A stretch of DNA of 64,000 nt from Lophium mytilinum (taxonomy: Eukaryota): contig MU004197.1 in assembly GCA_010093605.1 (NCBI GenBank), forward strand, positions 124,001 through 188,000, given 5' to 3'. Positions 1 through 58,109 of the stretch are shown here, piece after piece. The position numbers were made by a program, and so were the translations under genes. The notes under the pieces are model-generated. The model was not told where the DNA came from, made no database searches, and was given only the letters and a program-made list of their open reading frames with translations. Position 1 is the stretch's first letter, and every line of letters begins with the position of its first letter.

Positions 1-2458
1 GCCACCATTAGCGGCATCACCGTTGTCCTCAGGCTCTGTCAACTCCCCTGCGTCATCAACTGCGCCTTCAGCCACGCCCATATTGCTCGTCTCGTGAACT
101 GGAGACACAGGTTGCGCAGCATTGAGAGTACTCTGGCTGGGTGGGGTGGTTTGCGCAACACTGTTGCTACCATCAGCGGCATTGTCGTTGTGGTCAGACT
201 CGTCTCCCTGGGGCTGTTCATCGCGAGAAACAGCATGATCGGGATGCTCATCCTCTGCATTGGAGTCCAGGCCTTGATGTAGCCGGTCGTCTTCAGGGGG
301 AAATCCGGAAGAACCGGAATTAGAATTGACCTCGACCGTGTCTTCCTTCTCCGCGGAAGCCCCATGTGACTGTTCCGGGTCGCCAATGTTCTGCTGCGCT
401 GCTCCAAGGTCACCACTATGGCTTGCCTCCATATGGGGGCGCTCGAAGGCGGCCAATGCTTCAGCAACCTGCTGGGAAACCTGCTGGGAAACCTGCTGGG
501 AAATCTGTTGAGCCACGGTAGCACTCAAGAAGGTCTGGAACTCGTGACTGCATAAGCGCTCATCGACAGCAGCCTTGATATCGCGAGCGCGGTTCGCATC
601 AGCTTGCTCAAGAAACGCATCAAGTTGGGCTACTGCAGCATTGGTCTTGGCAAACTCCTCTCCTACCATCTTCCAAGCAGCGTCGAGTTTTTGCTTCTGT
701 TCCAGGTCTTGGGACACGATATCGTCTATCCGCTTGTTTAGTGACAGAGCTGATAGCGACGCTTTCTTGATGTCGGCGCGAAGGGCCGAGATGCACGTCG
801 ACCCACTTGAGACGCTTGTTTCGTTCAACTTGGAGACATTCTCGTTGAGTGACTTTGTGGTATTTTGGAGCTCTTGCATGCCTTTGCGCAGAATGCCAAT
901 CTTGCTGGTGTGGTCGTTAGATTTCTCTTGGAGCGTGTCGACTTCTTCTCGTCCGAACGATGGCCTCGCGATTTGCTTCTTCAGATCTGAGACGTCTTTT
1001 CGGAGTGATGTGAACTTCTTTGACCCTTCCTTGATGCACTTGCGCTCCAAGTCACGGACTTCCCAAGAGATACTGTCCATGCGCGTAGTCATCTTGTTCG
1101 CAGCTTCGGTGGCAGCCTGATCAACTTCCTTGGCAGTCTCATCACCCTTCTTAACCATGTCTTTCGCTTCCGCGACATCAGCTTTAGCCTCCGAAGCATC
1201 CTTTGCCGTCTTCCTGACCAAGGTCTCCAGAGTCTTAAAGGAATTGTGTTCATGCAGGTGATTCTTGTGAATGAAACCCGCGCTGACCTCGCCCAGGTCT
1301 TTCCGGATGGAGCGTTGATGGTCCTCCAAAGAACCGAAGCGGTCGTCTAAGCTAGTAAAGCCACCTATGCCCAGATGGTGTCGGTGTGTTGGGTTTGCGG
1401 CAACGGCGACTTCATCAGCGATTCTTTTGTAGTTCCACTCCTCGTTGCCGTGTAAGAGCTCTTCCACCTCACTTGTCCGTTGTTCCACCTCAGTGATCCG
1501 GTCTTCCACCTCTTCCAGAGTATGTTGTCTTGCCGGGAAAAACTTGGTATGGGGGTCGGCATCGTGCGCGTGCATATGGCGGGATCGGGAAGGTATGTAA
1601 CTGAGGATGCGTCCCAACTCAGCTCTCTTGGCGCGGCGTTCTTGACGGGCCTTCTCACGTTCCAAACGGACCTCTTCGTCTTTGGGGTCGATTTTGCTAT
1701 AGTGTTGTTAGCAATTGCATGCTTCTGTGACGCTTATGAAGTACAGTGACAGGCCGCAAGTCTAGGCACACCAGTACGCCACTGCTTGGGGTACACCCAG
1801 AGGATCTCGAAGACTCAAGGGCAATGTCAAGCTTCAAGCAGTGCAGATTAGACTGCCTCTTGACCAATTGCCTGCTCAGCAGCCAGGGCACTCCTCACGG
1901 TGACGTTGAGTGGTCAAGCTGGAGCCGAGCTGCAATGAGTCCGTGTGCCCAGACTTGTAGCCCAAGACCGTACCACATATCGAAGGGAGTTCCATGGTGA
2001 GTAAATGAATCGGCGGGACTCACCGGGGAGCATAGAGAATCCGTGCGGCGGCTTCGGTACCTGGTCCTCCCTGCGCAATCCGGGCTTCAATCTTTTGAAG
2101 ACAGTCCTCATACTTTTTCTTGTTTGCAACAAGATCCGCCTCAGCGTCTGCAGCTTTCTTCTGTTGTCTGGCTAGTCTCGACTGCAGAACGCGAACATGC
2201 CGTGCCGAGGATTCTTCCGCCCTTTTGACAACGGCGGCAGAGTGAGCAAGCATGGCTTGGAATTCGGGCCTACGCCAGTGTTAGCAAAACGTGTGCGGTG
2301 TACACCTTTGGGTCGATGGACACTTCAAAGAGCTTTGGGGAAGGGGGAGAAAAGGGTCTGTAGACTTACCACATAGCTGAATGAGGTCTTTCCGTGAGGG
2401 GAGAGACGTTTGCAGGTCCGGGACCAGCTTGCCGCTGTCCTGGGAGAGCAGATGCCAT
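1..2458 (-). CDS. G1: array-type coiled-coil/low-complexity protein, 3' end runs off the window (exons 2458-2370, 2269-2024, 1696-<1)
   Basis: ATG at 2458 (MASALPGQRQ...). Introns 2369-2270 (GTAAGT..GCTAAC..TAG) and 2023-1697 (GTGAGT..GCTAAC..TAG) join exons in frame (SAMW|PEF, YAPR|KIDPK). The frame continues to position 1 with heptad-rich segments resembling G3's coiled coil. Family membership is inferred because the C-terminus is not visible. Confidence 0.75.
1780..1960 (-). repeat. Copy of the ~163-bp intergenic repeat family inside G1 intron 2
   Basis: TTAGACTGCCTCTTGAC...GGGCACTCCTCACGGTG...GAGTGGTCAAGCTGGAGC matches the units at 3040-4130. Confidence 0.65.
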
Positions 2459-2924
2459 CTTGCGGGGTGAGCTGACCAAGCTCGGTGAAGTCCAGCAGTT
2501 TCAATAGTCAACAAGGGCACGAAGTAGGAGTGTGCAACACTACAGACGTGATATAGGTTGGTGAGAGATGGATGATTGTGTCGTGCTGGAGAGTGGTGGA
2601 GTCGAAAGAGTCTGTGGGCGGCGACGCAGAGAAGTAAGTGGACGAGACTTGTCGCCAAGAAACGGAGTGGCCAATGAGCGAGAAGCGAGAAGTGAGAAGC
2701 GAGAAGCGTAGTGGCACTTGTTGGAGATGGTGCATGGATTCGAGGCTACGTCATTAAGAACTGCGTTGAGAGGGCGGATATATATATTACGAACTCTGCT
2801 TGTACAGATTCAAAAGCACTGTAACAAGGACAATTTCAATGACGCGATAGCATAATAAGTCTTCGGACACTGGTGGAATTGATTTGTTAAGGCATGGCCA
2901 GAGATCTTGCTCCCTCGACACCGC

Positions 2925-4130
2925 TGTGAGGGGTATTCTGACCACTTGGTAGCTAGTCAGCCAAGAGGCAATCTAATCTTCACCCTAGGGAACTCATTAT
3001 GGCCCTCGAACTCTCGAGATTGACATGACTTCCCCTCTCTCGACTACGTAGTGAGTATCAGGCTACTTTTTGACGGAGGAAGTGCTTGCTAGCTCGGGTC
3101 TCCCTAACAGCGGCAACAATTAGGCAAAGATAGAGCGAAAGAATCGCGATTTCCAGGCGTCTATCTGATGTTATAGTAATATGCATGCAGGAGAGACTGT
3201 AACGGCTACGGAGTTGATATTAGACTGTCTTTTTACGGAGGAAGCACCAGCAAACGGAGGTATCCCTTACAGTGGCGTTGAACAAGCAAGACTGGATACA
3301 AAGCAATACGATATGCATATCTCTATACTAAAATAATAGCAATATACGTGTAGAAGAGGATGCAACTGCTACAGAGTGAATATTAGGCTGTCTTTTGGCG
3401 AGAGAGATCCCCTAAGCTGGGGTCTCCCTTACAGTGGCGTAGACTAAGCAAGAATAGGGATAGAGATCTAAGTGTTTAGATTTCATTCTAATACGCTGTA
3501 TGTAGAATAGGATATAAAGCCCAAGGCGGTGATTATCAGGATACATTTTAACGAAGAATACACCTATGAGCTGGGGTACTCCTCACAGTGGTGTTGATCG
3601 GTCAGGAATGGAATGAAAGCAGTGATATATCCAGTGATCGAGGTCCTGTACCAGTACGGTGTATGCGGAATAGAACGTAAAGGCTAAGGCCGTGAATATC
3701 AAGCTACCTTTCGACGAAGGAAAGATCTACTAGCTGGGGTATTCCTCACAGTGGTGTTGATTGGTTAGGAATGGAGCGAAAGCAATGAATTTTGCAGGTG
3801 TTGAAATTATGTTCCAGCACGGTGCATGCGGGGTAGGATGTAAAATCTAAGGCTCTGGATATTAGGCTACCTTTTGGCAAAGAAAATGTGTGTTTGTTGG
3901 GGCATGCCTTACACTGGTATTGATCAGTTAGTAATGGAGCGAAAGCAGTGATATATTCCAGGTATTGATATTACACTCCAGTGCTGTGCATGCGGAATAG
4001 GATGTAAGAGCTAAGGCAGTGAGTATTAGACTACCTATTGACGAAGGATATACGTCGTTGCGGGGGCAAACCTTACACTGGCATCAATCGAGCAGAATGA
4101 AGCCAGAATAGTGCTATATCTAGGTTCACT
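2925..4130 (-). repeat. Degenerate tandem array, ~7-8 units of ~163 bp
   Basis: Core GGGGTAYYCCTYACAGTGG recurs near 3097, 3258, 3419, 3573, 3736, 3899 and 4062 (spacing about 154-163 bp). Confidence 0.85.
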
Positions 4131-4274
4131 TCACAGTAACGTACCTGCAGGGTCTTTCGTAGGGCCAGGGTCACGAAAGGCGGTATTGTTCTCACGTTCT
4201 TCACGTAGTAGTTTATCAAGAAAAGCTTTCAGATCCATCATTACCAGTCCAGCTAACCCAAACTACTTGCAGCG

Positions 4275-4426
4275 GGCCCGGCACGCAACCCCCGTCTATT
4301 AGGACGGAGGTCTGCCAGCCCTCGCCCCAAACACCTGTATAGTGCGTTGTCTTAACGCGCAGCTGTCAGGCTGCGCATAGTGACTAACACTATACAGGGT
4401 TGAGACGAAGGCTGGTGTGCTTGACC
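4275..4426 (-). promoter_or_regulatory. Class A structured 3'-UTR RNA element of G2
   Basis: mRNA sense: closing stem GGUC-GCAC/GUGC-GGCC, long hairpin CCAGCCUUCGUCUC/GGGGCGAGGGCUGG with inner stem CUGUAUAGUG/CACUAUACAG and loop CUGACA, second hairpin GACCUCCGUC-CUAAUA-GACGGGGGUU. Homologous to 34381-34522 and 48059-48212. Confidence 0.75.
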
Positions 4427-4503
4427 ATGTATGAAAAGAAAAGAAAAGAAAGAAAAAGAAAAGAAAAAGAAACCACTTGCAGAACCTCATTTTCACCCGC
4501 TCA

Positions 4504-7500
4504 TCAGCCGCCCGCCGCCTCGGACCAGTCGCTCACATCGCTCGCCGCGTCGCTCAGCTCGCTCGAATCGCTATCGCTGTCCTCCTCACGAGCCATGAGA
4601 TGGGACTCGTCGCGCTCCTCGACCTCTCGCTGCTCCTCCCTCAGAGCCCTCATCTGAGCATCCCGCTCGCGACGTCGGTCGTGCACAGTCTCAGTCTGAG
4701 AAGAGCTGGCGTCAGGACTTGCTAGGTCCAAGCTGGTAGACGTCTCCGTATCGTTCTCGACGTTCGCAAGGAACGCGCGAGCTGCATTCGCCGCAGCGTC
4801 AGCCGCTTCCTCGGCGTTGTACAGCATACGTATCGCAGAGGGGGTCTTTAGATCTTTCACCGCTTCGTCGAAGACGGTTGGCCATATCTCCTGGGCGTCG
4901 GCCGACAGCTGCTCGTGGGACTCGTTCATCTTCCGCTCCAGCTCAGCCAGCTCCCGCGCCTGTATCTGCTCGGCAAGCTGTTGATCCGCCTGCTCTTGCG
5001 CTGCTTTCTGAGACGCTTCGTTCGCTGCGTGCTTTGTTTGATACGCTTCCTGGTTCTTCCTCGCCTCCTCGCGCTTCTTCAGCAGTATGGTCTTCCGCTT
5101 CTCCCACGGGTGGTTGAGCTCCTTGGCGAGGGGCTGTTGGTACGTGTCCTCCGTCCGCGACTCAACCGGTTGCTTCAGCCAGTGCTTGAAGACAACCCCT
5201 TCTCTCAGAACGCTGAACCTGATCAGCTCATCATGGGTGAACGTCTGGCCATCTCGTCGATTATGCCGCTCAAGCACCCCATAGATCTGCTTCAGCGCGT
5301 CCTCCCGCATCTGCTCCGCGTCGCACGCGAGGTCCTCGTAGTCCCCATCGTCTAGCACCAATCCGGGGATGCAGTTGTAGGCCGTGGCACTCAGGCCACG
5401 CTCTTTCAGAAAGTCCCCCACGGCATCGCGCCACAGGACCTCGTTGCCGCAATCCGTGAAAATTACGCGCTCGATGGTGTGGAGGTAGTCGCCACTGTCT
5501 GCGGAGCGAGAGTAGAACGTCTGCTCCCTCACCGTCGTGAGATCGATGAGGGTGGAGTCGGAGAGGAGGGGGAGTCCGTCTTGGGTGATGTTCTGGTTGT
5601 CGCGGTCGTAGTGGACGATCAGACGGTAGAGGACGTTCTGGCGCTCGAAGATCTGGCCGAGATCGTCCCCATCCCGCATATCCGGTGGAGGTGGCGGGCG
5701 GGTTGGCTGGTTGGCGGGGTCGGTGAAGACCCTAGGGATGAGGCGGGGGTGTAGGACTAGGTAGGTGGATCGGGGTCCCGATATAGACGGCGGAGACGGC
5801 GACGTGTGGGGAGCCTGGATATTGGCAGTTGGCGCCACTCCAACAGTCGCAGCTGGTTGGAAAACAGGCGGGGATTGTGCTGCCATCTGAGGAGCATCGA
5901 CCTGCTCACCCTCATCTGAAGCCTCGGTGACCTCTTCAGCTTCGCCCATAGGCGAATCAGCCCGAGGAACGATAGGCTCTGGAGCAGGGGTAGCAGCCAC
6001 TGGCGTCAATCCGGCAACGCCAACGCGCGGGAAAAGGGCCTCCAGACTCGGGTCAATAGCCGAATTATCGACCGTTCCCTGGTCTCTATCGGGCGTAGGT
6101 GGCTCCCTGCCTTCAGCCATGTTCGAATCTGCGCTGAAGTCAAAGCTATACAGAGGGGCTCTCAATGCCTCTTGAGGTGCGACAAATGGTTGCAACGCAG
6201 GATCAGATCTAGAAGCCTGTGCCGTATCCACCGGATCAGGGCCCCGAGGAGCATCTGCAGCTTCGCCCATCTCGATATTGGCTCCGTAAATGCCGTCTGG
6301 GCGCGCGTTCCACGGATCAATCCGGTCCCCCCTGGGCTCGCTATCCTGCTGGAAAGCGGGAGCAGACGGAGGTGCCATATGAAAGCCGAAATTGGCAGTG
6401 GGAGGATTGAACCCGAAAATTGGGCTGGGTTGCTGTACCGGTTGCTGAGGCACAAAAGGCACTGGAGCTTGCCTAGCCACTACAGGAGAGGGGGATGGAA
6501 CCGTGAAGCTAAAGCTGTCCGCGTTGAACATGTTTGGCTGAAAGCCATTGGAATGGAAAGCATTCGGCGACACCTGTGGATGGAAGGAGGAGAACACAGA
6601 AGCTGGAGTGGTGGACCCGGGCGGTGGGAGTTGCATAGACGGAGAGAAGACCTGCGAGAAGCTCAGGGCGCTGGGGGGACTCGCCGCATGCTGCAGGGGC
6701 GCAAAATTGGCGGGAGCCTGGCTGCGATCTGGAAGCTGAGGCTGGTTGAACACAGGGGGCTGGAAGCTATTCAAGGTATCGGCAGCTGCGCCTAGATCAG
6801 AGCTTGGAAATGGTGCTGCAGTAGCGGGCAGGAGAGTAGGCGCAGGGCCTCCAGACGGCGGTAGGACAACACCAGTAGTGTCAGAGACCAAGGCAGATTC
6901 CGCATGTTCCTGACCAGCGTGATCGATAGCTTCTTCAAATCCAGCGCCTACCAACAGCAGCGTGGCTGAGGGTCCGTCAGCCGAGGGGGGTCCTCCTGAC
7001 GGTGCGATGGTACCGGCAGCGGAGCTAGGCACGAAAGCCAGATCTGGAAGCTCCTGGGCAACAGCCTTGACACCATCGCTTGTATCAGGAGTTGCGGGGA
7101 GTGAAGTGGACGGCGCTGCGTTAGTAGATGGAGGACTTCCTGACGGCGCGATGACCTTGGCAAGAAAGCCAAACACAGAGAACTGATCTGACTGCTCCTG
7201 AACAGCCTGAGAGATAGGCTCGCTTGAATCACCATCTGGTGATGGAGTGGCGGCGGAGGTTGGGATGGAAAATGGAGGTCCTTCAGAAGGTGCAATGACA
7301 GCGTCAGCAGAGTCTGACACGATGGTGAGATCTGAATCCTCTAGGCTATTGACTTTGGCGGCATCGCCAGAATCAGACTCCGGGGACTGAGATTGAGTAG
7401 AGTCCAAAAGAGGAGAGTGAAGGCCGTCGGACGGTGCGATCATAGTGGCAGCGGAACCCGACGCAATGGTGCGATCTGTCTGCTCTTGGCTTCTGGTCTC

Positions 7501-9259
7501 AACTGCACCATTTGAATCAGACTCCGCCGACTGAGATGTGACAGAGTTCGGAGGATGAAATCGAGGACCGTCAGACGGTGTCGTGACTACGATAACAGGC
7601 GCGGAAACCGACACGAGATTTGAACGGTCCTCCATAACCTCCTTGAAGACCGGCTTGGAAACACGACTACTGATTCGGAGCTTGCCGTTGAAGTCCTTCA
7701 CCAAAGCTTTAACGTCGAATCTCGCGCGGCCAGTCTGAAGCGCCATATCCGATGTAGCTTCTCGTAGCATAGACACCGGAGTGGAAGTAGCCACGACCTT
7801 TCCAGAGCGCTGTCCAGTGATGGCTGCTCCGGCACCGCTATCAGGTTCATCAGCCGAGTCATCCGATTCGTCTGAATCGTCGCTGTCAGAACCATTGAAC
7901 TTGAATTCCTTAGGATCGAAGTGGAATTGTGTGCGCTCTCCTTTGTCTGAGATGCGATCCTCTGATTGTGCATCTGAACCGATCCCTTCGTCATCTGTGT
8001 CCCGCCTGGAGCCACTATACCTCTTAAGGTCATTCACAGTGGTTTCCAGATCGAGAACCCGTTGGCTCAACTTTATGTCTTCCCTATTGCGGGCGTCTAG
8101 ATCGATACGCAACATCTTTACAGTACTCTTAGTACTGAACATCTTCTTGTTATCCTCATCCATATGTATTAGAACTGGATGCTTCAACGAGAAATCCATC
8201 TTCTTGAGATAGCCGCTCTTGACACCTTTTAGTTCTGCCAGGAGTTTGGCGTTTTCTTTCGTCAAGTTTTTGACTTCTCCCTCGAGCTCCGCTACGGCAT
8301 TTTCTGCGGCGCCTTGCTTGACACCTTGATCGAAGCTCCGCGTGGTCAAGTTCTTAATCTTCGCTTCCAGCGTTGCAACTTCCGCCTCATGCTGAAGATG
8401 AATAGGCTTGAAAAGTTCTTCGAAGATTTCTTTGATACGATCATCTGTCACGTGGTTTGTAGCTTGGTTGGTGTCTACTGAAGTATCCACCTCGAGCTTG
8501 ATGTAAGATGAAGAATTGGGACCGGTGCGAGCAGAATCATCTTGGAGAGAGTCCAGGGTTCGTACTGGTGGAAGAGGAGGGACAGATTGAGAAGGAGAGG
8601 CTAAGTGAAGGGGATAGACCAAGTGAGGCGAAGATGCCGGGTGAGGAGGATGGGCTAAGAGGTGAGGAGCTTGGACTACATTGGGATCTGCGAGGTGTGC
8701 ATCGCGGTGAAATCGTGCGCGCAAGCCTTTCCAAATGCGGTGCGCACTGAGAGCTAGCAAAACCCCGAGGATGAGGGTGAGAAAGAGCCATAGAAGCTGG
8801 TGAATTATCGAACGCTCTGCCGATGCAGGCGAGAATGTCCGATTTGAGCTCGATGTAAACGTAGAGTTGTCTTGCATAGGAGCTTAGAAAAGAGTGGGTC
8901 AGCGACGTCCTCATCTATACGAAAGTGAAAAGACTTACGCGTATCAGAAGCGGCCTTTACAGAATCCCACGCCTGTTGCTCTGAGATAGTGAGGTAAATC
9001 GGAGGCGGGTTGTACCGGATAGAAGCTTGGAAAAGAGAAGGTCAGCGACGTCCCCATCCATGCGAGAGTGAATAGACTTACGAGTATCAGGTGCAGACTT
9101 GACAGGGTCCGACACCTCGTGCTCCGAGATAGTGAGGTATATCGGGCGCGGATTGTACCAGATAGTAGCTTTACCAGCGTGAACGAGTATCCGCAGGAGG
9201 ACGTCGATGACATTGTAGCCTGTCTGGATGAGGGCATGGGCGGCCATGTTCGTGGCCAT
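4504..9259 (-). CDS. G2: array-family protein, ~1547 aa (N-terminal TM helix, coiled coil, IAPSxG repeats, FxF-rich region, two KIX-like repeats)
   Basis: 1457-aa ORF extended by exons 9259-9082 and 9025-8939 through 56-nt introns 9081-9026 and 8938-8883 (GTAAGT..GCTGAC..AAG), frame preserved. TM segment LLWLFLTLILGVLLALSA. Confidence 0.85.
8883..9165 (-). repeat. Tandem duplication of a 143-nt exon+intron unit in G2
   Basis: Exons encode YNPRPIYLTISEHEVSDPVKSAPDT and YNPPPIYLTISEQQAWDSVKAASDT, each followed by a closely similar 56-nt intron. Confidence 0.85.
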
Positions 9260-9569: not shown

Positions 9570-11136
9570 GTAACCTGGCCAAAAAGACATGTTGCGAGAT
9601 ACACGTCATCGGCCATACGGGAGACACGGAGTCACGTGTCAAGATGCTTATGCGGCAGTGAAAATGATACCGCTATATTTATCTGTCTTGTTAAGATCCC
9701 TCTAGAGCCACTGGTGTCGCTGCTTGTTGGGGTGCAAGATTTGGCTTTAGCTGGAGATACAGCAACAGCGGGAAGATGAGGAAGACGAAACAAGGCTGGG
9801 TAGGAAGATGGCAAGGGGCTGAGCGACGGCGACATGGTACATTAGTTATAGAGGAAATGGACCAAAGAATGCTAGCCCCTTCGTCAATGATGGTCGCTCC
9901 GGAGCCGCTATCTAGAATTCCATGATCGTCCTCATCGTCTTAGGCATCCTCGGTCCTCGTATAGTCCTCTTCAGGCTTGTCTTGCTTGCCTGCCTAGGCT
10001 CCTGGCCAGCTCCCTTACCTCACCCACAACTCTGTTGTTCTCTCTGATGTACCGGCGCTCTTGACTCTCCGGTTCTTCGTCGTAGCTACGAGACCGAAGC
10101 GCGTGGTTTTGCGCAAGCTCTTCCCTGTGACCAGTGAGATACTTGAAGATTCGCACTATTATCCCAGTGTAACACATTTGCTCCAACTTGATCTCCCCAT
10201 TGATCTCCCCGTTTGCTGCGCTTTGTTCGAAAAGATCCTTTCGAGGAACCATCCGTCAATGTCTTTGCGGGACTCATTTTTGAAATTTGCAAGCGTGCCA
10301 ATACAATATAGTTGGCGCTTGAGACGAGAAAAGGGAAGTTCTCCAGCCATGCCTCACACCCCCAGACATGAGTGAAATTCGGGCAAAGGCAAAGATAGGC
10401 AAGAGACACAAACGTAGGGATAGGGTGGTAGTAATGAGAGGCCTAACATAAATATCTATACCTTTCCTAGCATTGGATCAACTCTACATGTTGGTTTGTG
10501 TCCACCTTTATCGATAAGAACCAGCCAATAAGGTCTAGCCGCTTAATTTAACGATTGGCCAAGAATTGCTTACGTAACAACCCAACACACTAACGTGCGA
10601 AGGAATACGGCAGGACACTAGGATCTTTTACGAATGCACGTTTTTCTCCGACCATTATTCCATCCCTGCTAGGTGCTACATTTTCTGAACTCGAAGCAGT
10701 AGATATCTGGAACTGTTTTGCCTAACTAAGGGCGTGCTGGCTGTGGCACCCCTAACAGCGGTGTCAATTATGCAAGAGTAGAGCCCGGGCAGTGAGATGT
10801 CTGTGGGCCCCAATATAAGGTATAGTACTATACTGGATCCGCACCATTAGTGAAGGGTAATTACGCAGCAGCATCGATAGCAGTCGAACAGCGCTAGTCA
10901 AGTCACATACTCAGCATTGCACCGTGGTGTTTTTATTTGTTTTTGTATTTTCTCATCCTCTAGAATACTGGGGCCTCCCAGACACCGCTCAACCCCGTCC
11001 ATCAGGACAGACACCCCATGACCATATGCAGTATGCCCATCGCAAAACACCAATATCTGCTTGCAAATTCAAACGCACCCAACTCGCACTCCAAATCGCA
11101 CCTGAGACTCAGCCACCGAAACCCAAAACTATAAGA

Positions 11137-11395
11137 CAAACCCGAACACCGGCTAGCCAGAGCACCGGGGAATACAAGAAATCTTCTTCTGCAAGAGGTG
11201 TCCGCAGTACTGCGTTCAAAACCTCTCATAGTATCGGAACTCCAAGTTTCCCCATTTTTGATTTTGTGGTGTAGTGTCCGGAATGCCACAACCCCTTCCT
11301 CTCCGAGTGATGTCCGCAACATTGCGTTCAAAATCGCTTGAAGAGTCAGGAGTCTGCCGGACGGTTGGCATATGTTGGGTGTAGGTGTTGGGGAT
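11137..11395 (-). promoter_or_regulatory. Class B structured 3'-UTR RNA element of G3
   Basis: Closing CCCCAACACC/GGUGUUCGGG, stem GUCCGG/CCGGAC, and two UUUUGAACGCA-N3/4-UGCGGAC hairpins. Preceded in mRNA sense by an A-rich tract (11413-11510). Confidence 0.7.
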
Positions 11396-11587: not shown

Positions 11588-14500
11588 CTACTGAAGCTCC
11601 TGGAGCATTGCTTGCTCAGCTCCGTCTTCCCCTCCCCAGCCATCGTCGTCATCATCATCGTCTGGAACCGCGAAGGTGCTGTTGTCAGGCGCTGTGTCGT
11701 TCTCTGGCGCTGCGGCGAGGGCGGGCGGCTCTAGAGGAACATCCCTTTCCTCTGGTTCTTGTGGCCGCCCCTGCCTGGCGTTCGCCGCCTGACGATCACG
11801 TTCCGCAACGCGTTGAGCCAGAGTCTCGTGGTCAGAGGGCTCGGTGTCGCCCATAAGCTCAGCCTGCCTAGTCGCCTCTTCCTCCTTCTCCGACGCAACC
11901 AATTCAGCTTGCCACTTCTGAAACTGCCGCCCCGCTTCGTCTGCCGCATCCTGCGCGTCTTTGGCCTTCATTAAAGCCGTCGTACGGGCAGCACTGTTCC
12001 TAGCGTCACGAATCGCCTGCTCCGCGACCTTCTTGAGCTCGATTTGGCGCCGCTGCTCCTCCTCCGCTTCTTGCGCCATCTTTGCACGGTACGCTTTATC
12101 TGCGGCGAGGTCGCGTGCGAACTCCGGCTCTTTGAGCTTGTACTTGGCCTGGAACGCTGCGTTCCTAGCGCGCATCTCGGCCTCGGATCGTCGGGCTTCT
12201 TCCTCCATTGCGGCTTCATCTGCTTTCTGTTGGTCCGCGATATCCTTCTTGGCCTTGCGCATCTGCGCCGCGCCGATCGCTATCCGCCCCTCATCGCCCT
12301 CCTGTTGGATCTTCTCACCGTACCGCTGGTCGTTCCGTCGGTCCTCGTAATGGCCAGCTGCCCAGAAGCGAATCGCGCGCTCCTCAGCGTCGACGGCTAG
12401 ATATACCATATCTTCGTCGGTGAACAGCGGCGCGTCTTTGAATAAGCGCGCGCGGTTCTGGCGTTGGAAGACGTGTTCGTATAGAAAGTATAGCCCTTTC
12501 AGGCGGACGTCGTTTAGCCAGTGGGAATACCGTTCCTCCTTCCAGTCTTCAGGGTGATACCGCTCTCGCTGGAGGAACACTGGCTGAAGGCGGTCCAACG
12601 CAGAGCGCGTGCTGAATGGCAACGGTAATGGAGCAATCTGCGTCTCGCGATGCGGTGCCTCTACATTGCTTGACCGTGGCGTCTGCGTGGAAGCTTGTGG
12701 CATAACACTAGGTGGAGGGAACGTGGAGGCTACAACCGTTAGTATTTTACGTTTTCCATCTGTGTTGTTTGAACGTGACATACCATTAGAAGCTTCTGGA
12801 CGAGCATCAGGCGTGGGGGGCGCCTGTGCAAACTGCTGACGTCCGGGTTGGTTTTCCATAGCCTGGGACGTGCTATGAGGGGAAGATGGACTCTGGAGAG
12901 TAGGTTCCATGTTTACTTCCATATTAATGGGCAGAGGCGCAAATCCTGGAAGATCCTTCACAGAGAGTCTCCAATCCGCAAGACACCTAAGCCAGAGTGC
13001 CGAGTTACCAACCTTGACGCTACCCATTCGACGAGACAGCTTCTCGACCTCCTCATGGTATTTATCATAGCTTCCAGCTCCCCGTGCGTTCGCAATCTTG
13101 AACTCCATTGCGCGTGCAAGGGTTACCCGCTCTTCGTATGAAAAGTTGCCGTTGTTGGCAACACCAGCCTCAGATAATGTCTGGAAGATGTGGCCCAAGA
13201 CGCCTTGACGTATATCCAGATATTTACGGAGGGTCGGGTCTGCAGGGAACAGCTCCATAACCGAGTAATTCTGCGAGGAAAGTTGAGGCGCTTGAGGTGG
13301 CGTTGCGTCAGGAACGCTACCTCCGGATGCGTTGTCATCGACGCCCATCTGCTCATCGCCATCATTATCTTGAGTTTCCTCCTTCATTTTGACGTTGCCA
13401 GTTTCGAGGTCATCCCGGGACTGCGGATTTGGCTTGACAACACCTGCGCCTTGGAAATGGTCCTGAACCGTTAGGGCGCCCCCGGAGTGAGCGACCCCGT
13501 TGACTTCAACTTCCTTAGACTCGTGTCCCATTCCGTCCTTCATTTTGACGTTGCCAGTTTCGAGGTCGTCCTTGAACTGCGGGTTTGGCTTCACAGCAGC
13601 TGCGACTTGGAAGTGGACCTGACCCGTTGCGGCGCCCCCGGAGTGTGAGATCCCGTTCTCTTCAACATCCTTGGACACGTCGCCCATATCATGATCGAAC
13701 TTGTCTGTTGTGTTCTCGCCGTTTGCGGTCGCCGGGCCTGCTTGAGGTTGTGTACCCTGATTTGCGTTTACCTGCAGAGCACTAGACACAAACGGCCCTT
13801 GTTGGTTTACGAAAGGTGTAGCTCCTGAGTTGGATGGAGCTTGGTTTGCTGGGACTTGAGTTGCTGGGGCTTGCGCAGCTTGAAAGTCCATAGCATGCTG
13901 GGTGATGATGGGTTTGAAGCTAGGGTCAAAGGTAGAGCGAGGAACAGCAAGTCCGAAAGAACTCGGCGGAGCCGCTGGCCCACCCACTGGAGTCGTTGGG
14001 GCAGCCTTGGCCAAAGTAGACTTCGTAGCGTGCTGGGCGATGTTGGGGTTGAAGCTCGGGATGAAGCTCGGGGTGTAGCTCAATCGAGGGCGCGCAAGTT
14101 TATATTCGTTCACCGGAGTCGCCAACACACTCGCTGGAGTCGCCGAAGTAGTCTTGGGTGTTGTAGGCTCAAAGACCATGGCTTCTTGATTGATAGATGG
14201 GTCGCGAGGAAGTTTGAATTCAAAGCGCGCAGGACGGAGAACTATGTCGCAAGACCGAGTCGCCTGCCCACCGACGGGAGTTGTTGGCGCAGCCTTGGCC
14301 AATGTAGGCCGAGGTTTCAGTGCTTGCTTAGAAAGGGTTGATTTGACTCTAGCCATGTTCACCGAAAGCGGACGAGCAGAAACCGAGCCCCTCGAGCGAG
14401 TCGCTAGCTCGCTCACTGGAGTGATTCGAGCGTCCTTGGGCAATGTAGGCTGAGAGTCGATAGCTTGCCCAATGGTGTTTGATTCGGAACTAGTACGGAA

Positions 14501-17500
14501 TACGAAGCGAGGAGGATCAAGAACGAACTTGCTCGACGAAGTGGTTGGGGTAAAGTCCAGAGACTGCATGGGTACCGGACGGGTGCTGCTCTGCTCTCCA
14601 GCGATGTGAGGAGGGGTTGACGACGTGGAATCGGTGCCAGGAGTCCCAGATGGAAGCGAGCGATCTGAAGCCTCTGTATTTGAGCTCGGTCCCGTGGTCT
14701 CATTCGAAGTGCCCCATTTTGAGGGCTCTGTAGATCGTGCAGTATTGTCCCCGCCTTTGTCGTTGCCGTGAGAGCTTCCAGACGCCTCAGCACCCCCTTG
14801 ACCACCGTCAGCAGGGTCATCGTCATCCGCATCATCGCCATCTTTCTTATGGATACTTAGATCCTTGTCGTCAGCTAGTTCATTCCGCTTTTTGGCAGCC
14901 TGCTCATCCTTCTTTCGCTCATCAGGATCCCTGAAATCGTCATCGTCGATACCGCTAACAAAATCCTTCTTTTTAAGCGTGAAGAGTGTCCCTTCACAAA
15001 CAGGGAGAGGAATTTCGCTAGCGATAGCAATCCACTTTTCATCGGCCTCAGTAGTAAACACGAACTCAGGCGAGAGCTCTTGAAGGATAGCGAGTGACTG
15101 GCGCATGAAGTTTCCCTCATTACTCCAAAAAAGAGTCACCTTTGGCCCGAGAGCAAGCATAAGCAAGTCCTCAGCACTCGTAGGCTTCGCTAAGTGATAG
15201 CGTGTTCGGAGCAAATCTTCCGTTTGCCTCATATTAATAGCTCTCCGCCTAACCTTTTTAATCTTACGGGGCGGAGTATTGGATCCGGCAGTGGACTGAA
15301 GCTCATTCACGGTGTTCTCGCCTTCGGGTTCCTTGTTGTCATCTTTGTTGGGATTGAGCTGGCGAGCGGTGTCGTTGGACACGGTAGTTTGAAACCCAGA
15401 AGAGTTGGTAGCAGACTCCGAAGATGGTCCAGCCAGACCGGTCGATCTCGAGTGATCAGCGTGCTGAGCCGGTAGAGAAGTATCGACACCTGCACCAGTA
15501 GTAATGGCGCTGGGGGATGTCGCATTTAGAACGTTGTTCGTGTCCTCCTCAGTGGTATTCGTGAGGGTCTCTTGTCCTTTCGATGGTGCGCCCGCTCCAT
15601 CTGAACCGTGCGTCTTGACCTCAACCTGTGTGGAGATCTCATTCTTTGTCGAGACCCCATCTTGTGTCGAGATCTCACCCTGTGTCAGAACCTCACCGCT
15701 TGTCAAGACCTCACTGTGTGTTGAGACCTCACCGTTCAATATAGAGCTAGACGGTGATTTCGCTGGTGACTCTGACGACAACGTATCGGTGGCTAGGCTG
15801 TTCGGGTCATGGCTGATAGTGAGGCTGCTGGGAGGAAGCTCCCCATGTTTATCCTCGCCCTTAACACGTTCCACTATATCGGTGACATTGGTGTTGAGCG
15901 CAGATGCTAGGTTGTTTGCGGAGTTTGGTGAGCCATGGGTGAGAAGAGAGCTCATAACAGAGCTTGGCGAACCTGACTCTTCCGAGTTTCCAGTCTGGCG
16001 CACAGGAGAGCTGGGAGTGTTATCCACGGGATTCTGCGCAACAGCCTGGTTTGATTTAATGGCTATCGCACTACCTTTTCCGGGATTGCTTGGATCGTCA
16101 TCGCCATCTGAGTCGTCCTCTTGACCATCACTTTGATCCTCGGAGTCTTTCTTCCTTTCATCCTGGTCTGCACCTGCACCATGGCGGTTGGGAGAGTCAT
16201 CACCCTGACCTGCACCTGCACCATGGCCCTCGTCCTCGGGGGTACCATCATCATCACCCTGGCCTGCACCTGCGCCTTGGTCGTCGTCCTCAGGAGTGTC
16301 GTCATCCTTATCTTTGCGCGTGTCCGAGTCGGGTTCCTGAGTCTCATTCTTTTCTTCGAACGGGGAATAGACGTTAGTCAGTTGCTTCTTGATGTCTTGC
16401 ACATCTTCGCTCAGCGCGAGAACAAGTCCCTTCTCAGCCTTGGAGTCGACGTCGCCACGCATGATCTGGAGATCGTTGCTGAGCGCCGTGACAGCATCCT
16501 TCCCAGCTTTCGAATAAAGGATTTCGCTCATCCCCTCTACTAAAGTGATAACTTTATCGGTATCGGTCTTTGAAGCGAAGTGGCCATCAAAATTCTTGAC
16601 CTCTTGTTCCAGGATAGTGAAATCTTGCTTTTCAGCCTTGTCGTCGACGGCCTTAGCAAGGGCTTGGCTATCCTCCCGGAGAGTGGTGAGGTCTTGCGCA
16701 TGAGCCTTCTGTGAAACATCCGCAGTGAGAGTCTGAACAGTCTGTTCCAAGGCAGTCAAGCGTTTCTTGATGGCCTTCTTTGCAACATCAGCCTGCAAGG
16801 TCTGAACTGAGTTTTGCAGTCCAGTAACGTCATCAGCATCCGACTTCGTGAGAAGTTGAGCATTCGTATTCTGGACCTCTTGTTGCAGATCCGTGACGTC
16901 CTGCTTTTCAGCTTTCCGGGCAAGTTCCTTTGTGACCTTGCGACGAAGAACACCAACACGCCTAATGCTCTTGTCATCTTGCTCCTTCGTCATCATCCGC
17001 AGTGCTTGCTGGGTGTTCTTTGTCGCTCGGACAGCTTCCCTGCGAGAGCGCCTAGTCTGCTTTTGGTGCAAACGTAAAGCAAACCGTTGTTGACGAAAAG
17101 CATGATTCCGCTTCTCCACGGCGACTTTGGAGTCTTCGAGAAGAGTGATTTTGGCTTCAAGCGCAGCGACTACATTCTTGTCTGCCTTCGTTGCGATAGA
17201 AGCGTGCATCTTAGTGTCTTTGTCCTCGGACTCTTTCATAGACGCAAGTGTGGCTCGCAGCATATCCTGGCAGTCCGGATCGGCGAGGCACTCTTTGAAC
17301 AGGCTCTGACGCTCTGAGGTGGTGATCGAAGATTCGGCGTCGGTATGAATTCCCTTGGATAGTTTTTCATCGACGGACTTTTTGTATGCTTCGAAGTCAT
17401 TGTTCAAAGTAGTCAGGAGTGCAGATAGGCCTTCGACTGCTGTGCGCAATTGAGAGAAGTGCGCATGGTCCGACAGCTTTTCGGTCTCGAGGAACTTTGC

Positions 17501-25079: not shown

Positions 25080-25590
25080 AAGGGGGAGTCGAGTTGCAAG
25101 GAATGTAAGTTAGACTGTCGCTTGGCCAAAAGGCTCCCGAGGAATCAGGGTATCCTCTACAGTCGTACGATTAGGTAGGATTCAAGCTAAGCAGTATGAT
25201 TCGGAGAGCCCAGAATTTTGAGGACCTAAGGCGGAGTCTAGTTCCAAGCAGGTAAAACTCAAGGCAAATAGATTTGAATCCGGTTGCCTAGACTTTTAAT
25301 AACATAATGCCAAGTTGAGTTCCAAGTCGTTTATTCTAGACTGCCTTTTGACTAAACGGCTACCACGTAGTCAGGCCACCCGTGACAGTATTGTGGAGTG
25401 AGCAAAATACAAGCCAAGCAGTGTCGAGTTCGCGTGCCCAGACTTTCGAGAACCCGAGGCGTAATCACTTTTCAAGCAGTGTACATCAGACTACCTCTTA
25501 ACTAGCTGGGTACCAAATAGCCAGGCCACCCTTTACAGTAGTGTCGAGTGAGCAAGACTGGAGCTAAGCAGTGATGAATTCGTATGCCTA
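25080..25590 (-). repeat. Three degenerate copies of the ~163-bp repeat family
   Basis: TAGACTGYC..GGKYAYCC..ACAGT..GAGTGAGCAA cores near 25147, 25372 and 25521. Confidence 0.65.
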
Positions 25591-25849
25591 GGCTTATATC
25601 GTGGTATGGGTGAAGCATATTGTATCAATAGAAGCATCACATGAGCTCACTCGCTCACTCAAATCATGCAATTATGAAGTTTCTGTAGTTTTCATCTAAT
25701 CAAATCTTTTCACAAAAGGCCCGGAGACCCATTTATCTACCCCCAGAGCCTCAATGCTCTGACTTCACGCAAGAATGCAAGTGCATAAGGCCGTTCAATC
25801 CTCTACCGAACACATATCCCAGCCCCTGAAAACCTGGAGGTTAAAGACA

Positions 25850-30881: not shown

Positions 30882-31522
30882 GACGTGTGATGCCAGCGTT
30901 TGCTGTGCTGGCACACGCAGATTGGAGATGTTTGTGTAACTGCAAATGGAAACCGGTGGTGTGTGTGGAGGTGTGGTGGGTGGGGGAGTGATCAAGGGAG
31001 GTTGGTGGAGAAGAGAAAGTCTGTGGAGGGCGGGAGAAAGACTTTGAGCTTGTGGGCGCGTGGTGCGGCTGCCAAGACTTTGCAGTTGGTAGTGAATGGA
31101 TTGATGCCCGGAGTGTAAGCGCTTATCGATAAGAGGCTTTCCTCCGGCATGAGTGATTTATTAATGGACGAGCCTAATTATCACCCCCCTTTTTGCTACG
31201 TATCACCCCCTATCTTGCTACATAGACCTTCAGAGAGCTTCCTGCCGACTTGATGCCGCTGCTAGAGGTGCCCCAGTTGGCAGCTGGCCGGCCGGCCAAA
31301 CAGTAGTCTGAATCGCATTGTGTAGACGTAAGCGACATGTATCACGTGACTCGTCACATGCTCTCACAACTTTGGTGAAAGTGCGGCACGTCACCCGCTA
31401 CAAAAGCCCGCTTATCTCCTACGCAGTGTCTTTCATTTTCGTTCAACCACTGCTTACGGACCCACTCCCCGAACACACACCAAGCAGACTCTGTCCTTGC
31501 ATCTATCTTCAACGCTCACACG
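30882..31522. promoter_or_regulatory. Divergent promoter region shared by G5 and G6
   Basis: Head-to-head genes ~640 bp apart. Contains the palindrome CTTATCGATAAG (~31122), a 22-nt direct repeat TATCACCCCC..TTGCTAC (31179-31221) and TCACGTGA (~31342). Confidence 0.5.
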
Positions 31523-32866: not shown

Positions 32867-34380
32867 TAGGGTCGATTCAGCGACGATAGTGACGGGGAGA
32901 ATGGGAGCGGAGTGAGAAGGGGAACGAGGCCTATGATGCGCGGGGAGGAGTGGCAGTTGGCGACGTAAAGTACATGCTACGCTAACTCATGAGGAAAATA
33001 CTGCGCCTTGATTCGAGTAATATGGCGCAATCCTCATCTCTAAGCATTTGTACGGACAGCCTTACAGACGAAAAGGCTGAGTCTACCGCTGCCGCTGCGA
33101 CGGGAAATTCTGCCAGGACTCAAGAGTTGATGTCCTCGTAGCTTGTAGTGTAGACATAGACGATTAGATGAGAAACCACCATAGTAACGAGTGGTTGGAA
33201 CCAAAAATCTGATAATGCATTGAACCCAATGCTACGCCTGTGTTTCTTCAAAGTGACTGTAGCCTTGTCCCTGTATAACTCCTCCTTTTCCTTTCCGACA
33301 TATTGGCGCACAACGTGAATTTCACCTCTTGAGGTAGCCGTTCGGGTGGGGAGGCCTAGTAATGCACAGTCCAAATACAGCTAGACCTAGGGATTCATAT
33401 CCCTACGCAACCAAAGATGAAATATGCATTGTCGAGGTTCAAGTAAGGTTCTCTGCTGTTTCTCCTACCCGTATCCTTCCCGGTGTTTCTATTACTGCTT
33501 CAATAGCTAGATGGAAGTGCTCCGCTAGCATATCCAATCCCTGAAGGTCGCGTCCTTCCGGACGGGGCATGCAACTGGGACGCAAGTCACGGCGTGTGCA
33601 CTTCCTGTATATGCAAAGTGTATTGATTCTACCTAAAACAAAGGAAAGTTCTTCAGCTCATGCAGGACGCTTTTCTTGCCATATGTGATTGCTCTCACAC
33701 ATTTGAAGTGCATCGTAGATGTTATCGTAGCGTTCTCTTACCTGAAGCACTTCTTACAGTCGCATCGACCGGGCAAGACTGCTGTTCAATCGGAGTAACA
33801 TGGGTGATCTCAGCCTCAAGCAGCTAATTCCGCGCCCCACCAAGTAGTCACAGTAATAGAAAGCATAATCATAGATCCTAAAGGTCCAAAGGTCCTATAA
33901 TACAAGCCGCACCAAGACCGCCGTCATACTGTATACAGAAGTCCCAAAGCGCCAAGTCCTTATATCGAACAGCTAACTTGTCTAGCAGCACACGCTAGGG
34001 CCGCACCGCCCTCCTTCTCTGGCCCACTTCATTATAGCTAGACGCGCCTTCCTCCCCCACGATTGGCTGTGAGACTGCTTTTAGAACGTCATGAAAAGTT
34101 AGGTTTTCGAGTTTCCTCGTTTTTGAGGCAGTGTCTCAGCGGTACGCCAGATCATTGACAAGCACTTGCTGTAAGGGGAAATAGGGCGAAGAGAAAAAGG
34201 AACGAGAAGGAAAAGAAACTGCCCAAATACAGTAAATTAATAAAACGTACAGAAATAGAAAGAAACAATCATGTACACCAAACTCACTTCATCAGCCATG
34301 CACGCAGTAAATCATCATGAATAGTTTTTTCGACCTAGCATTGCTACTCCGACTAGATCAGCCCAATACCATCTTCGCGA

Positions 34381-34522
34381 ACCTAGCACGCGACCCCATC
34401 TATCAGGAAAAAGGTCTCCAGCCCCCGCCCAATACCCGTATGATGCATTGTCTCGCGCACAGCTATTAGGCTGGCGCATGACTAGCACCATACATTGAAA
34501 CGAGGGCTGGTGTGTGCTGGCC
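34381..34522 (-). promoter_or_regulatory. Class A structured 3'-UTR RNA element of G7
   Basis: Same fold as 4275-4426 with compensatory changes (GUAUGGUGC/GCAUCAUAC). Loops CUAAUA and CUGAUA. Confidence 0.75.
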
Positions 34523-40640: not shown

Positions 40641-41379
40641 GGTGGAGACTTGAACGAACAGGCTCGTCGTCGGGATTGTGTACAGAATGCGCGGACCAGG
40701 CGCAGAGAGAGGTCTCCAATAGATACCAAGAATGTGCACATAGGCCGCAGTGGAATTTGCGGTGTGGTGTGGTGGGGATTGTAGGGTGGTATCGAAGGAG
40801 GTGGGTGGTGGAGAAAGTAAGTCTGGGAAGTGCGAGGGCCTTGTTATGGATTAGCAGCCGGGCACAGGCACATCGAAACGACGCTAAGAGCTAAGCAGTG
40901 AATATAAACCTACTGCAGGGTCTCGAAAATGACGTCAAAGACGAAAGGGGCGTCATGTAAACAAAAGCACGGAAGCTCGGGGAGCGCGCTAAAGATCTAA
41001 TCAATTCACTGAGATGTTCAGGCACAATACTGAGCCATCAAATTAGGGCCCCGGATATACCACCGCTCCAAATACGATCTTGATCACTCGATACTACTGT
41101 GAGGAGGACCCTGTGTAGTCCGTTTGAGCTACGTCAAAAGGTAGGCTATTCAGCGCTCATGCACATACGAAGACTGGCCACATGCTCCCCCGCCCAATCT
41201 TGATAGTGGGTAGCTACAGCTGAGGTTTTCTCTCCGTGAATTGGTCCCTAAGACTAGACCTCTAGATAACCTTTTCAACGTCCTTAGACATTATACAACA
41301 CTATGATATATTTTGTCTACTTCCTACAGCCTCCTGAAGGACCTCCATAGACGCTGAAATTTTCGAATTACATATCAAA

Positions 41380-41960
41380 GCCAGCGCACTGTAAATTAGA
41401 GTACTATTTACTTGACTAAAAGTATGTTACTTGGGGTCCCCTGGACAGTGGTATGATGAGAGCAGAAGTGAAGTTAAAGCAATGGCATACCGGACCGTCT
41501 GAGCTTTTGACCTAGTACTGAGTGCTATGGGACATGTGTGGGCATTCCGCGCATACGCTTGGGGTATCTTGATAGGCTTTCGAAACTCTGAGTATGACAG
41601 CGATGCATCGTGAACATGGCTGCCGTTTGACTAACCAAAGACTTGCCGCTTGGGGTACTCCTTACATTGGCGTTAAGTGATCAATATTAATTTTAAAGTA
41701 GTGGAACATCAGTCTTCCTAATACTTCAACCTATTACCAGAGTATCTCTTGATATATTAAATCCCTTATACTGTATATATAAAATAGAGTAAAGTATTTC
41801 TAGACACCCCACGCATCTACTGGGGGTATCCCGATAGAGTTCTTGATCTCTATAAACGATGCATAGCTTGATGTACTGGATTTCTAGCTGCCATTTGACT
41901 AACTATAGACACGCTTACCGGGGTCCTCCTTACAGCGGCGCAACACGAGCACATAGTAGA
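41380..41960 (-). repeat. Degenerate copies of the ~163-bp repeat family
   Basis: GGGGTMCYCCT..ACAKTGG-type cores near 41433, 41652 and 41920. Further single copies near 10745, 33745, 47509 and 57755. Confidence 0.6.
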
Positions 41961-46863: not shown

Positions 46864-48058
46864 TGTGAGCGGATGTGTTCGAGCAGATTGCTGGCAAGCA
46901 GCGAAAGCAGTGTGCCTGGACCAGAGGCAGCGCGCGAAGTCCAACGACAGTGAAGGAGCCGCAAAAGTGAGGTTGTGGAACACCAAGGCAGGGCGTGGTG
47001 TGGGGTATGAGGTGGTGTGTGGAGTGTCGATGGGAGGTGGTGAGGAGGAAGGTCCGTCAAGAGCGAGGGCAACGGATTGAAATCAGCAGCGTAGGCGCTA
47101 GGCGGCGCTAAGAGCTAGAGGGCACTTTCACTAGTGAAGTGAAATGACGTAATTGTGCGAATTTGATGCGACGGGGTTTGTGTGTCAACATCGGGTATTC
47201 ACTAGTTGTGGGCCTCGCTTTGTACCGGGTCCGGGCAAATTGGTGTTGCAGAGGGAGATTTGGCGAAGAAGGGAGAAGATGCTCAAGGTCTAGCTATATA
47301 TGCATGTAGTGTCGCAGGGGTTGAAAATTAGCTATATTCATAGACTTAGAAGTCATTCAGTCCTCTTTCTACAGTACTGAGTTATATGGTTGGACAGTCC
47401 TTGCAAGTCCTAGGGTGCTCCAAAAAGCATGGAAACTTCGAAATGCCATGTGACGGCCATCCTAGTGGGAATTAGACCACCTTTTGACCAACGGAGGAAT
47501 TGCTCCTTGGGGCACACCTTACAGTAGTGTCGGGAGAGCAAGGGTGAAGCCAAAACCATGGCATATCCATGTTGCCCACATCCAAAGCTCAGTACTGTAT
47601 GCTTATCCAATGCCTTGTTTATAGATCTGGTTTAGCGCGTGTCGCTGTTGACATCTCAATACTCAGACCAAAATATATTCAGGGGGACTAGCAGGTGCTG
47701 TCGCGGCTCTCAAAAGGACTGTTTGATCAGTACGATCTATGCTTGGTTGAAATTAGTACCCATATATCACAATTCTATTCCACGTATCCAATATAGCGCA
47801 GGTAGAATGTAGCATCGCAGCCTTCAAAACACCATGGACGTAGGAGTCTTTCAAACACATATCACCAGTGTCAAATCGAAGAGTCAAAGTTTGTAAATAT
47901 GCTTCATCGGATTCCAAACAGCTATTAAACCATTCAACTGTGATTACCAACAAAAGCTCCCTACTCGCAATACACTCGCACCGTTGACTACAATAGAACA
48001 CACAAAGAAATGAAAAAGATCTAGCATTTACTCCCAACTAGACCGACCTATCTGAGCA

Positions 48059-57310: not shown

Positions 57311-58109
57311 TGTTTGGAGTTTCCGCTATGGCGGACTTGGAAGAAAGCACCCGTTGGTTTTGTTCGCGGAAAAGCTCCACGATTATTTAAGAAGACAGTT
57401 CTGTTACCGGGCATAGCATACTGTTTTGTATTTCAAGGGCGTTTTCGTCTCAAGAGGTGAGATTGATGATGTGACGACGCGACGTGCGATCCCTGCTCGG
57501 AGCGTAAGCGCCGTTTCTCCGGCTGCTTTCGATCTCAACGTCATTCCATCCCACCCCACCCATCCCAGCCATCAACTCCACACACCAATGAGACCTGCTG
57601 ATTAGTAGGCGACCTTAGACAGACCAAAACTCTATGCGCACTCGTTTACCACTGCTAGGGGTGCCGCCATGGGGCGACCACAATGTAGGCATCATGTCAA
57701 GCTTTCGAGAGCGTAAGCTAAGCTCCTTCTTGACTAAGAGGTATCCTCGCGATGGAGCTGCCCCTGACAGTGGCATCCGGCTTGCAAAAGCGGCCGGACA
57801 AAGCTCTATTGTCAGAGTCCTTCTTTGTTAGCTAGGCGTGTTGATCGTTCCCTTTGTTCTCTACTCCACTGATCGAATGCTTAAGACAGCCTGCTTTATT
57901 TAGAAGACACAAAGAAACAATGCACTAGAACTATGCCTGAAACAGGCCAGCGGGCTCAAATATCTGTACAACAATCTACAATTGAATAACATTGACTATT
58001 CCAGCAGCATCCCACAATCCTCGGAAAGTAATCATTTTAATCTCCACAGCAGCAGCATCGATACCTCATTAATTGCACAGAACTTCCGCCGTAGAGCCCA
58101 CCGCTCGTC

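Follow-up and report, generated by a model that had tools for sequence, protein, structure and literature searches.

Downstream of one long gene and upstream of the next, a 64,000-nucleotide stretch of the Lophium mytilinum genome (hereafter the window) carries a tandem array of units of about 163 bp, in which a donor-like, a branch-like and an acceptor-like word recur on the gene strand. The locus raises the question of whether these units are introns of a transcript or repeats that have come to resemble them. A first-pass annotation had read the array as a chain of intron-plus-exon units, either a multiply spliced non-coding transcript or 3'-UTR extension, or a tandemly amplified introner-like unit. 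The explanation preferred here, to which we give about an even chance, is that a short (~145-163 nt) non-coding repeat, one of a dispersed family, was amplified in tandem here long ago and so produced the array.

Eleven long open reading frames (ORFs) occupy most of the 64-kb window, nine of them on the minus strand, and in a Pfam search of all eleven no family reached the cut-off. The array lies between the stop codon of gene G2 (4504) and the inferred start of gene G1 (2458), both on the minus strand; it begins ~350 nt past the G2 stop and shares the orientation of G2, and the interval from the G1 start to the array contains a TATA-like, AT-rich stretch as well as a CT-rich tract (2677-2708). 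One ORF gave a sub-threshold Pfam match to RhoGEF, its best named relative being a protein of Mytilinidion resinicola (76% identity), with other Dothideomycetes next. Seven ORFs without a Pfam family above cut-off are very long (1421-2351 codons; 4504-8883, 11588-18643, 26242-30720, 34660-40218, 42508-46773, 48326-53122 and 58095-63998), and several of them contain in-frame tandem repeats of 105-156 nt; the run represents lineage-specific proteins that are probably disordered. Paralogy of the flanking long ORFs as the origin of the shared spacers was rejected, their matches being weak and confined to low complexity.

Eleven inferred introns form the comparison set for this organism, three in the RhoGEF-like gene backed by alignment to the Mytilinidion protein and eight placed by ORF joining only (Table 1). 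Ten measure 51-100 nt and one 327 nt; across the window, their donors are of the GTAAGT/GTATGG type, their branches CTAAC/CTAAT and their acceptors YAG. The 327-nt member, G1 intron 2 (2023-1697), has a GTGAGT donor and a CTAAC...TAG end; its basis is ORF joining alone, and a search for G1 homologues that could confirm it returned none at E <= 0.001. Two segments inside long ORFs also carry perfect intron signals, namely 12783-12730 (minus strand; GTATGT...TACTAAC...TAG, 54 nt) and 46394-46338 (minus strand; GTAAGA...CTAAT...TAG, 57 nt). Both have a length that is a multiple of three and are open in frame, and they are possible retained or optional introns.

Table 1. Features of the window discussed in the text (positions of the 64,000-nt stretch; minus-strand introns of the comparison set are written from donor to acceptor).
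Feature	Position	Strand	Remarks
Whole tandem array	3036..4153	-	Profile search: a partial leading unit, then seven units of 154-164 nt
Intron-like segment 1	4011..4076	-	GTAAGG, CTAAT, TAG; 66 nt
Intron-like segment 2	3847..3912	-	GTAAGG, CTAAT, TAG; 66 nt
Intron-like segment 3	3684..3749	-	GTGAGG, TTGAT, TAG; 66 nt
Intron-like segment 4	3521..3586	-	GTGAGG, CTGAT, TGG instead of acceptor; 66 nt
Intron-like segment 5	3369..3432	-	GTAAGG, CTAAT, TAG; 64 nt
Intron-like segment 6	3206..3270	-	GTAAGG, CTAAT, TAG; 65 nt
Intron-like segment 7	3044..3108	-	Weak donor GTTAGG, CTGAT, TAG; 65 nt
G2 stop codon	4504..4506	-	Long ORF G2, 1459 codons, without a Pfam family
G1 inferred start codon	2456..2458	-	Same strand as G2
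G2 3-prime element	4281..4419	-	Repeat distinct from the array family, ~140-165 nt, nearly perfect hairpin
Family copy inside G1 intron 2	1829..1971	-	52 nt from donor, 132 nt from acceptor
Inverted family copy	2877..2991	+	Tail to tail with the last array unit, 51-nt spacer between
Solitary family copy	10694..10831	-	Intergenic
Second small family array	25098..25606	-	Three units, period ~150; no complete signal set
Partial family copy	31239..31329	+	Upstream of a plus-strand ORF
Partial family copy	33731..33819	-	Convergent intergenic region
Inverted family copy	41024..41156	+	220 nt from the 41377-41951 cluster, to which it stands tail to tail
Loose cluster of three family copies	41377..41951	-	41951-41875, 41721-41609, 41520-41377
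Solitary family copy	47453..47598	-	Complete set GTAAGG, CTAAT, TAG; 61 nt
Partial family copy	57714..57792	-	Divergent intergenic region
RhoGEF-like gene intron	57280-57220	-	GTATGT donor; homology-backed
RhoGEF-like gene intron	56821-56766	-	GTGCGA donor, CTAAT branch; homology-backed
RhoGEF-like gene intron	54979-54929	-	GTATGG donor, CTGAC branch; homology-backed
Intron by ORF joining	2369-2270		
Intron by ORF joining (G1 intron 2)	2023-1697		
Intron by ORF joining	18605-18550		
Intron by ORF joining	21534-21480		
Intron by ORF joining	30804-30710		
Intron by ORF joining	40231-40179		
Intron by ORF joining	46861-46763		
Intron by ORF joining	53183-53116		

The seven segments listed by the first-pass annotation were exact on recheck in both their coordinates and their motif counts (GTRAGG, CTRAT and TAG, each in six of seven). 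Donors are GTAAGG in four units, GTGAGG in two and GTTAGG in one; the branch-like motifs, each 14-15 nt from the segment end, are CTAAT in four, CTGAT in two and TTGAT in one; the segments end in TAG six times and in TGG once. A complete sense set of donor, branch and acceptor is present in five of the seven units, and the gene strand of the array holds six GTRNG words, one per unit, with GTTAGG in the seventh. The units run head to tail as in a minisatellite, at near-constant donor-to-donor spacings of 164, 163, 163, 154, 162 and 162 nt, and Tandem Repeats Finder reported the best-kept portion only (3505-4046; period 163, 3.3 copies, 75% matches). GC content is 43.8% in the array (computed on 3043-4141) versus 52.3% in the window, and similarity to the other units stops directly past segment 7. 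The six spacers measure 98, 97, 97, 88, 98 and 97 nt; once joined, they contain stops in all three frames, which rules out a coding reading and agrees with the earlier remark that they show no convincing reading frame. By the standards of the introns inferred in this genome, the segments are splice-competent on paper, as had been proposed: they run from GT to AG over an organism-typical 64-66 nt, with a CTAAT or CTGAT branch at a workable distance and a TAG in range, and the G at donor position +6 also occurs in a homology-backed intron (GTATGG).

A second site where duplication multiplies splice-like signals is found at the 5' end of G2 (8876-9171, minus strand), close to its likely start (ATG ~9257). 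It consists of a 143-nt tandem duplication (2.1 copies, 81%) with a GTAAGT word in each copy, once followed by ...TATAG, and its period is not divisible by three.

The array unit is not confined to the array. A profile built from its seven units matched 12 more places in the window at E <= 0.01 (1.4e-13 to 0.0011) and none in 40 shuffled windows, and BLASTN independently ties several of the copies together; membership of a dispersed family, which the option of an amplified introner-like unit had implied, is thereby borne out. After iteration, the search recovered 21 family copies in the 64-kb window, the seven array units included. They occupy eight of the ten intergenic regions between the 11 long-ORF genes, with one more copy in G1 intron 2, overlap no long ORF and are mostly co-oriented with the genes. 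Three clusters or arrays are formed (3036-4153, 25098-25606 and 41377-41951), two of which end in a tail-to-tail inverted copy. The inverted copy beside the present array (2877-2991) is 60-61% identical to the 25-kb copies versus 43% to the adjoining array unit, and is therefore best regarded as an independent family member that arrived separately. Neighbouring array units share 57-76% identity (mean 62.6%), other copies ~52%, and no higher-order structure was found within the array. If neutral, a Jukes-Cantor distance of ~0.5 implies an age of tens of millions of years or more, if rates in ascomycetes are taken as 1e-8 to 1e-9 per site per year (PMC12130899). A metagenome scan for the two-block family pattern returned 20 stretches, none of which matched the family profile at E <= 0.001; one gave a 53-nt match at E 0.0017, and four contigs from one sample proved to be an unrelated coding repeat.

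Other short repeat families occupy the same intergenic regions, so that the genome appears rich in such elements. The hairpin-forming element that follows G2, distinct from the array family, recurs on the minus strand after two other genes (34386-34514 and 48065-48206), 85-260 nt past the stop codons of three unrelated long ORFs in all. Its members share 76-78% pairwise identity in BLASTN and 80% mean column identity in alignment, and their consensus fold reaches -52 kcal/mol with 53 pairs, one of them with a compensatory change among three sequences; the family may be MITE-like or a 3' UTR structure. Two further pairs of 3'-flank elements, each shared by two different genes, are 25845-26006 / 42181-42340 (72% identity) and 11198-11343 / 20041-20187 (70%), and in the two cases read (stop codons at 26242 and 42508) an A-rich tract of low complexity separates the stop codon from the 3' element. 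A small number of recurring modules seems to make up the spacers of the window. Elsewhere, the region 23001-24000 has a GC content of 38.8% and lies in the range of repeat-induced point mutation (RIP) on both indices, and a 107-nt inverted repeat (23934-24038 / 24627-24521; 82%) has its arms ~480 nt apart; together they are possibly a decayed transposon.

Across the family, the best-kept blocks are CCACTGT.AGG..T.CCCC and GTCAAAAGG.AG.CT.AT. The donor-like GTRAGG falls in the best-kept core and the branch-like CTRAT at the end of the second block, so that the donor-like word and, in part, the branch-like one are inherited; the kept block also extends into what would be exon. Among the copies beyond the array, six of 14 have GTRAGG and five of the 13 that cover the position have CTRAT, and signal columns are only mildly better kept (0.606 vs 0.52; 12 of 143 shifts reach the observed value), the acceptor not being kept at all (rank 89 of 141). 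Column conservation inside and outside the array is correlated at r = 0.45. A complete sense set occurs in two of these 14 copies (2877-2991 and 47453-47598), whose number includes the six units in the two remaining clusters, all lacking one. Splicing is therefore not what keeps the family as a whole; the pattern belongs to this array only, and the TAG acceptor is particular to it.

A full set of signals can arise by chance in a single unit. Among 5000 shuffled circular units, 152 held some donor/branch/acceptor set under a loose rule and four held the exact pattern of the earlier annotation, so that one ancestral unit with a full set would be uncommon but not rare; the loose rule also finds antisense sets in four of the seven array units, which shows that it is permissive. 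Averaged over pairs of the six full units, identity is 0.876 in the 14 signal columns versus 0.612 in the remaining ones, a value reached among 162 circular shifts by the observed placement alone and by eight of 20000 random block sets, and ten of the 14 signal columns are invariant versus 37 of 148 others (Fisher p 0.0007), although these figures probably overstate the surprise by an unknown look-elsewhere factor, their significance being inflated because the array was probably picked for its conserved signals. The check proposed by the first-pass annotation, that splice positions should be better conserved than neighbouring bases, accordingly gave a positive result within the array; its caveat that shared ancestry could preserve the signals accounts for their presence, but not for their excess conservation. 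Outside the signal columns, the intron-like interiors (0.605) and the spacers (0.616) are equally loose, a pattern expected of real introns. The excess survives regression on conservation outside the array (six of 20000 random block sets reach it). Base composition was rejected as the cause of the kept columns, since after matching four of 20000 sets reach the signal value. RIP is unsupported as the source of TA-containing signals, TA/AT being RIP-like at 1.09 and (CA+TG)/(AC+GT) not RIP-like at 1.11; transitions and transversions between array units stand at 493:371. Some kept blocks of the array are unrelated to splicing (TGCTTT, CATGCA and CCCCAG).

The preferred explanation would account for the array in three steps. 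One progenitor unit of the family would by chance have held donor, branch and acceptor in order and at suitable spacing; tandem copying, presumably through unequal crossing-over or slippage, would have multiplied it; and the outcome would be a chain that resembles intron-plus-exon units and is splice-competent on paper. Seen directly are the signals, the array and the family with its distribution, whereas mobility, the mode of amplification and the lack of a splicing role would follow by inference. Against it, a neutral array offers no reason for the excess in the signal columns, selection of the case aside; terminal inverted repeats, target-site duplications and a coding partner were looked for and not found; and the occupation of eight of ten intergenic regions by copies of ~52% identity could mean a functional cis-element.

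The first rival is real splicing. The array would then be transcribed on the gene strand, as G2 read-through or a long 3' UTR or as a separate non-coding RNA, and its units spliced, which we consider rather unlikely. Selection would act on the splice signals alone, the act of splicing mattering and not the RNA sequence, and possible roles would include marking of read-through for nonsense-mediated decay (NMD) or by exon junction complexes (EJC), or limiting interference with the G1 promoter. Such splicing would fit the position of the array ~350 nt past the G2 stop in the same orientation, the single GTRNG site per unit, and the five units whose donor, branch and acceptor have the length and spacing of the organism's inferred introns; real donors that include GTATGG indicate that G at +6 is tolerated, and CTAAT occurs among real branches. 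The signal columns are far better kept than the others, with spacers and intron interiors equally loose, and because this array-specific excess falls exactly on the signal columns, splicing is kept as a live reading. Two of the seven units are nevertheless defective, one with TGG for an acceptor and one with GTTAGG for a donor; the spacers contain ATGs and stops and are unconserved; the family elsewhere largely lacks the signals (complete in two of 14 copies and in no unit of the other clusters); and the p-values are inflated by the selection of the array and its unknown look-elsewhere factor. The three kept blocks, moreover, resemble one another at the level of DNA: GTAAGG in reverse complement reads CCTTAC, which stands beside CCTAAT and CCTTAG, and this likeness makes a DNA-level reading possible. 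Unlikely as well is the fuller version, in which all seven units would be real mini-introns of a gene-strand non-coding RNA, the chain having grown from a dispersed repeat with a donor-like core, the signals being selected and repeated splicing itself being the function; under it, the chain may, for example, mark or dispose of G2 read-through ahead of the G1 promoter.

That DNA-level reading would make the family a cis-acting module, carrying protein-binding sites or serving as a nucleosome-sized boundary or promoter-proximal element, and the array a cluster of such modules upstream of G1. We judge this distinctly unlikely, although short blocks are kept across copies, eight of ten intergenic regions are occupied despite ~52% identity, six genes have a copy ~170-600 nt upstream of their inferred start codon, the unit length of 150-163 nt would lie near the nucleosome repeat, and the kept words include those unrelated to splicing besides the three 'splice' blocks that resemble one another. 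The copies were, however, found by matching kept blocks, so that their conservation is partly ascertainment; one copy lies in an intron and one in a convergent 3' region, orientation beside promoters is mixed, and no known motif or protein is tied to the family. It is very unlikely that the window displays the non-genic source copies of an introner family whose copies elsewhere in the genome would make introns of coding genes. The family is indeed dispersed and mostly gene-co-oriented, with a donor-like site in its core, and the nearest named relative of one protein (Mytilinidion resinicola, 76%) belongs to the Dothideomycetes, a class that bears introner-like elements (PMC3609843); yet no ORF is interrupted by any of the 21 copies and no intron coincides with one, the single copy in a gene being a secondary insertion in a longer intron, a type of case that a published screen removes (PMC12130899), and the segments are not longer than ordinary introns, have no stable fold and are far from near-identical. 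A plain private minisatellite with an intron look due to pure chance is equally hard to credit. The 152 of 5000 shuffled units that carry some set under the loose rule and the antisense sets in four of seven units would suit it, but the repeat is not private (12 matches outside the array versus none in 40 shuffles), and the excess conservation of the signal columns would go unexplained.

Assignment of the family to a known class of element was considered on the same 64-kb window, where an introner-like element (ILE) was rejected because no copy is an intron, identity is low and no stable fold is formed. All 21 copies leave the long ORFs uninterrupted, and the similarity of the genic copy (1829-1971) stops 52 and 132 nt short of the two ends of intron 2023-1697; identity averages 62.6% in the array and ~52% elsewhere; at 64-66 nt the segments fall within the 51-100 nt spanned by ten of the eleven introns inferred; and folding z-scores of 12 sequences range from -1.92 to +1.17, with no consensus base pairs among 17 family copies. 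Of the earlier proposal of a tandemly amplified introner-like unit, the tandem arrangement and the dispersed family stand, but the unit is not an ILE in the published sense, 0 of 21 copies being introns. Whole units showed no MITE hairpin (folding z -1.41 to +0.68, no better than shuffles). The flanks of 13 loci showed no clear terminal inverted repeats or target-site duplications, fuzzy copy ends weakening the test for duplications, and no coding partner was found for the family, so that mobility can only be inferred. Rfam gave no gathering-score match in the window and none at E <= 5 in 2800-4500 that could be a SINE head, and ARAGORN found no tRNA gene in the window. In its behaviour the family resembles a small, non-autonomous element, either mobile or satellite-forming.

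As no more than a decayed tandem repeat of a dispersed element, the array would be ordinary, yet it warns that amplified repeats can imitate the structure of a multi-intron gene and so mislead its prediction. If its signals are truly selected, it would be a compact natural case of a sequence-independent, splicing-dependent function in a fungal intergenic spacer, and a non-genic repeat family would supply ready-made splice sites, which bears on the origin of new introns. The literature searched on tandem repeats with a splice donor in each unit and on MITE or tandem elements of Dothideomycetes describes no such array.

Introner-like elements of Dothideomycetes were reportedly treated by van der Burgt and colleagues in 2012. 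ILEs are introns of unrelated coding genes, near-identical to one another, longer than regular introns and endowed with stable predicted folds (PMC3609843, Collemare et al. 2013). The present family resembles them as a short multi-copy element of a Dothideomycete-type genome, mostly co-oriented with genes and carrying a donor, a branch point and, in the array, an acceptor, although the set is complete in five of seven array units and in two of 14 other copies. It differs in that introns are absent from its copies, which share ~52-63% identity, in segments that at 64-66 nt have the length of ordinary introns, and in folds no better than those of shuffles. Repetitive elements inserted within regular introns have been set apart from ILEs (PMC3609843), and repeats inside longer introns are filtered out in a published screen (PMC12130899). 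The copy in the 327-nt G1 intron 2, whose similarity ends well before the splice sites, is of this kind. It is one of 21, however, and the array itself is intergenic.

Satellite and minisatellite arrays can derive from short interspersed elements. The family is similar to such satellites in that its unit is found solitary, in arrays of three and in an array of seven, in the near-nucleosome length of the monomer, and in the old, unhomogenised state of the copies; it departs from them in that a search for inverted termini, for target duplications and for a polymerase III head found none, and in its unusually well kept splice-like columns. Tandem duplication of a segment with cryptic splice sites is listed as mechanism 6 of intron creation and described as 'experimentally proven' (PMC3609843). 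Although that model operates inside transcribed genes, whereas the present array is intergenic and has no reading frame, the two have in common that donor and acceptor sites are multiplied at a fixed spacing.
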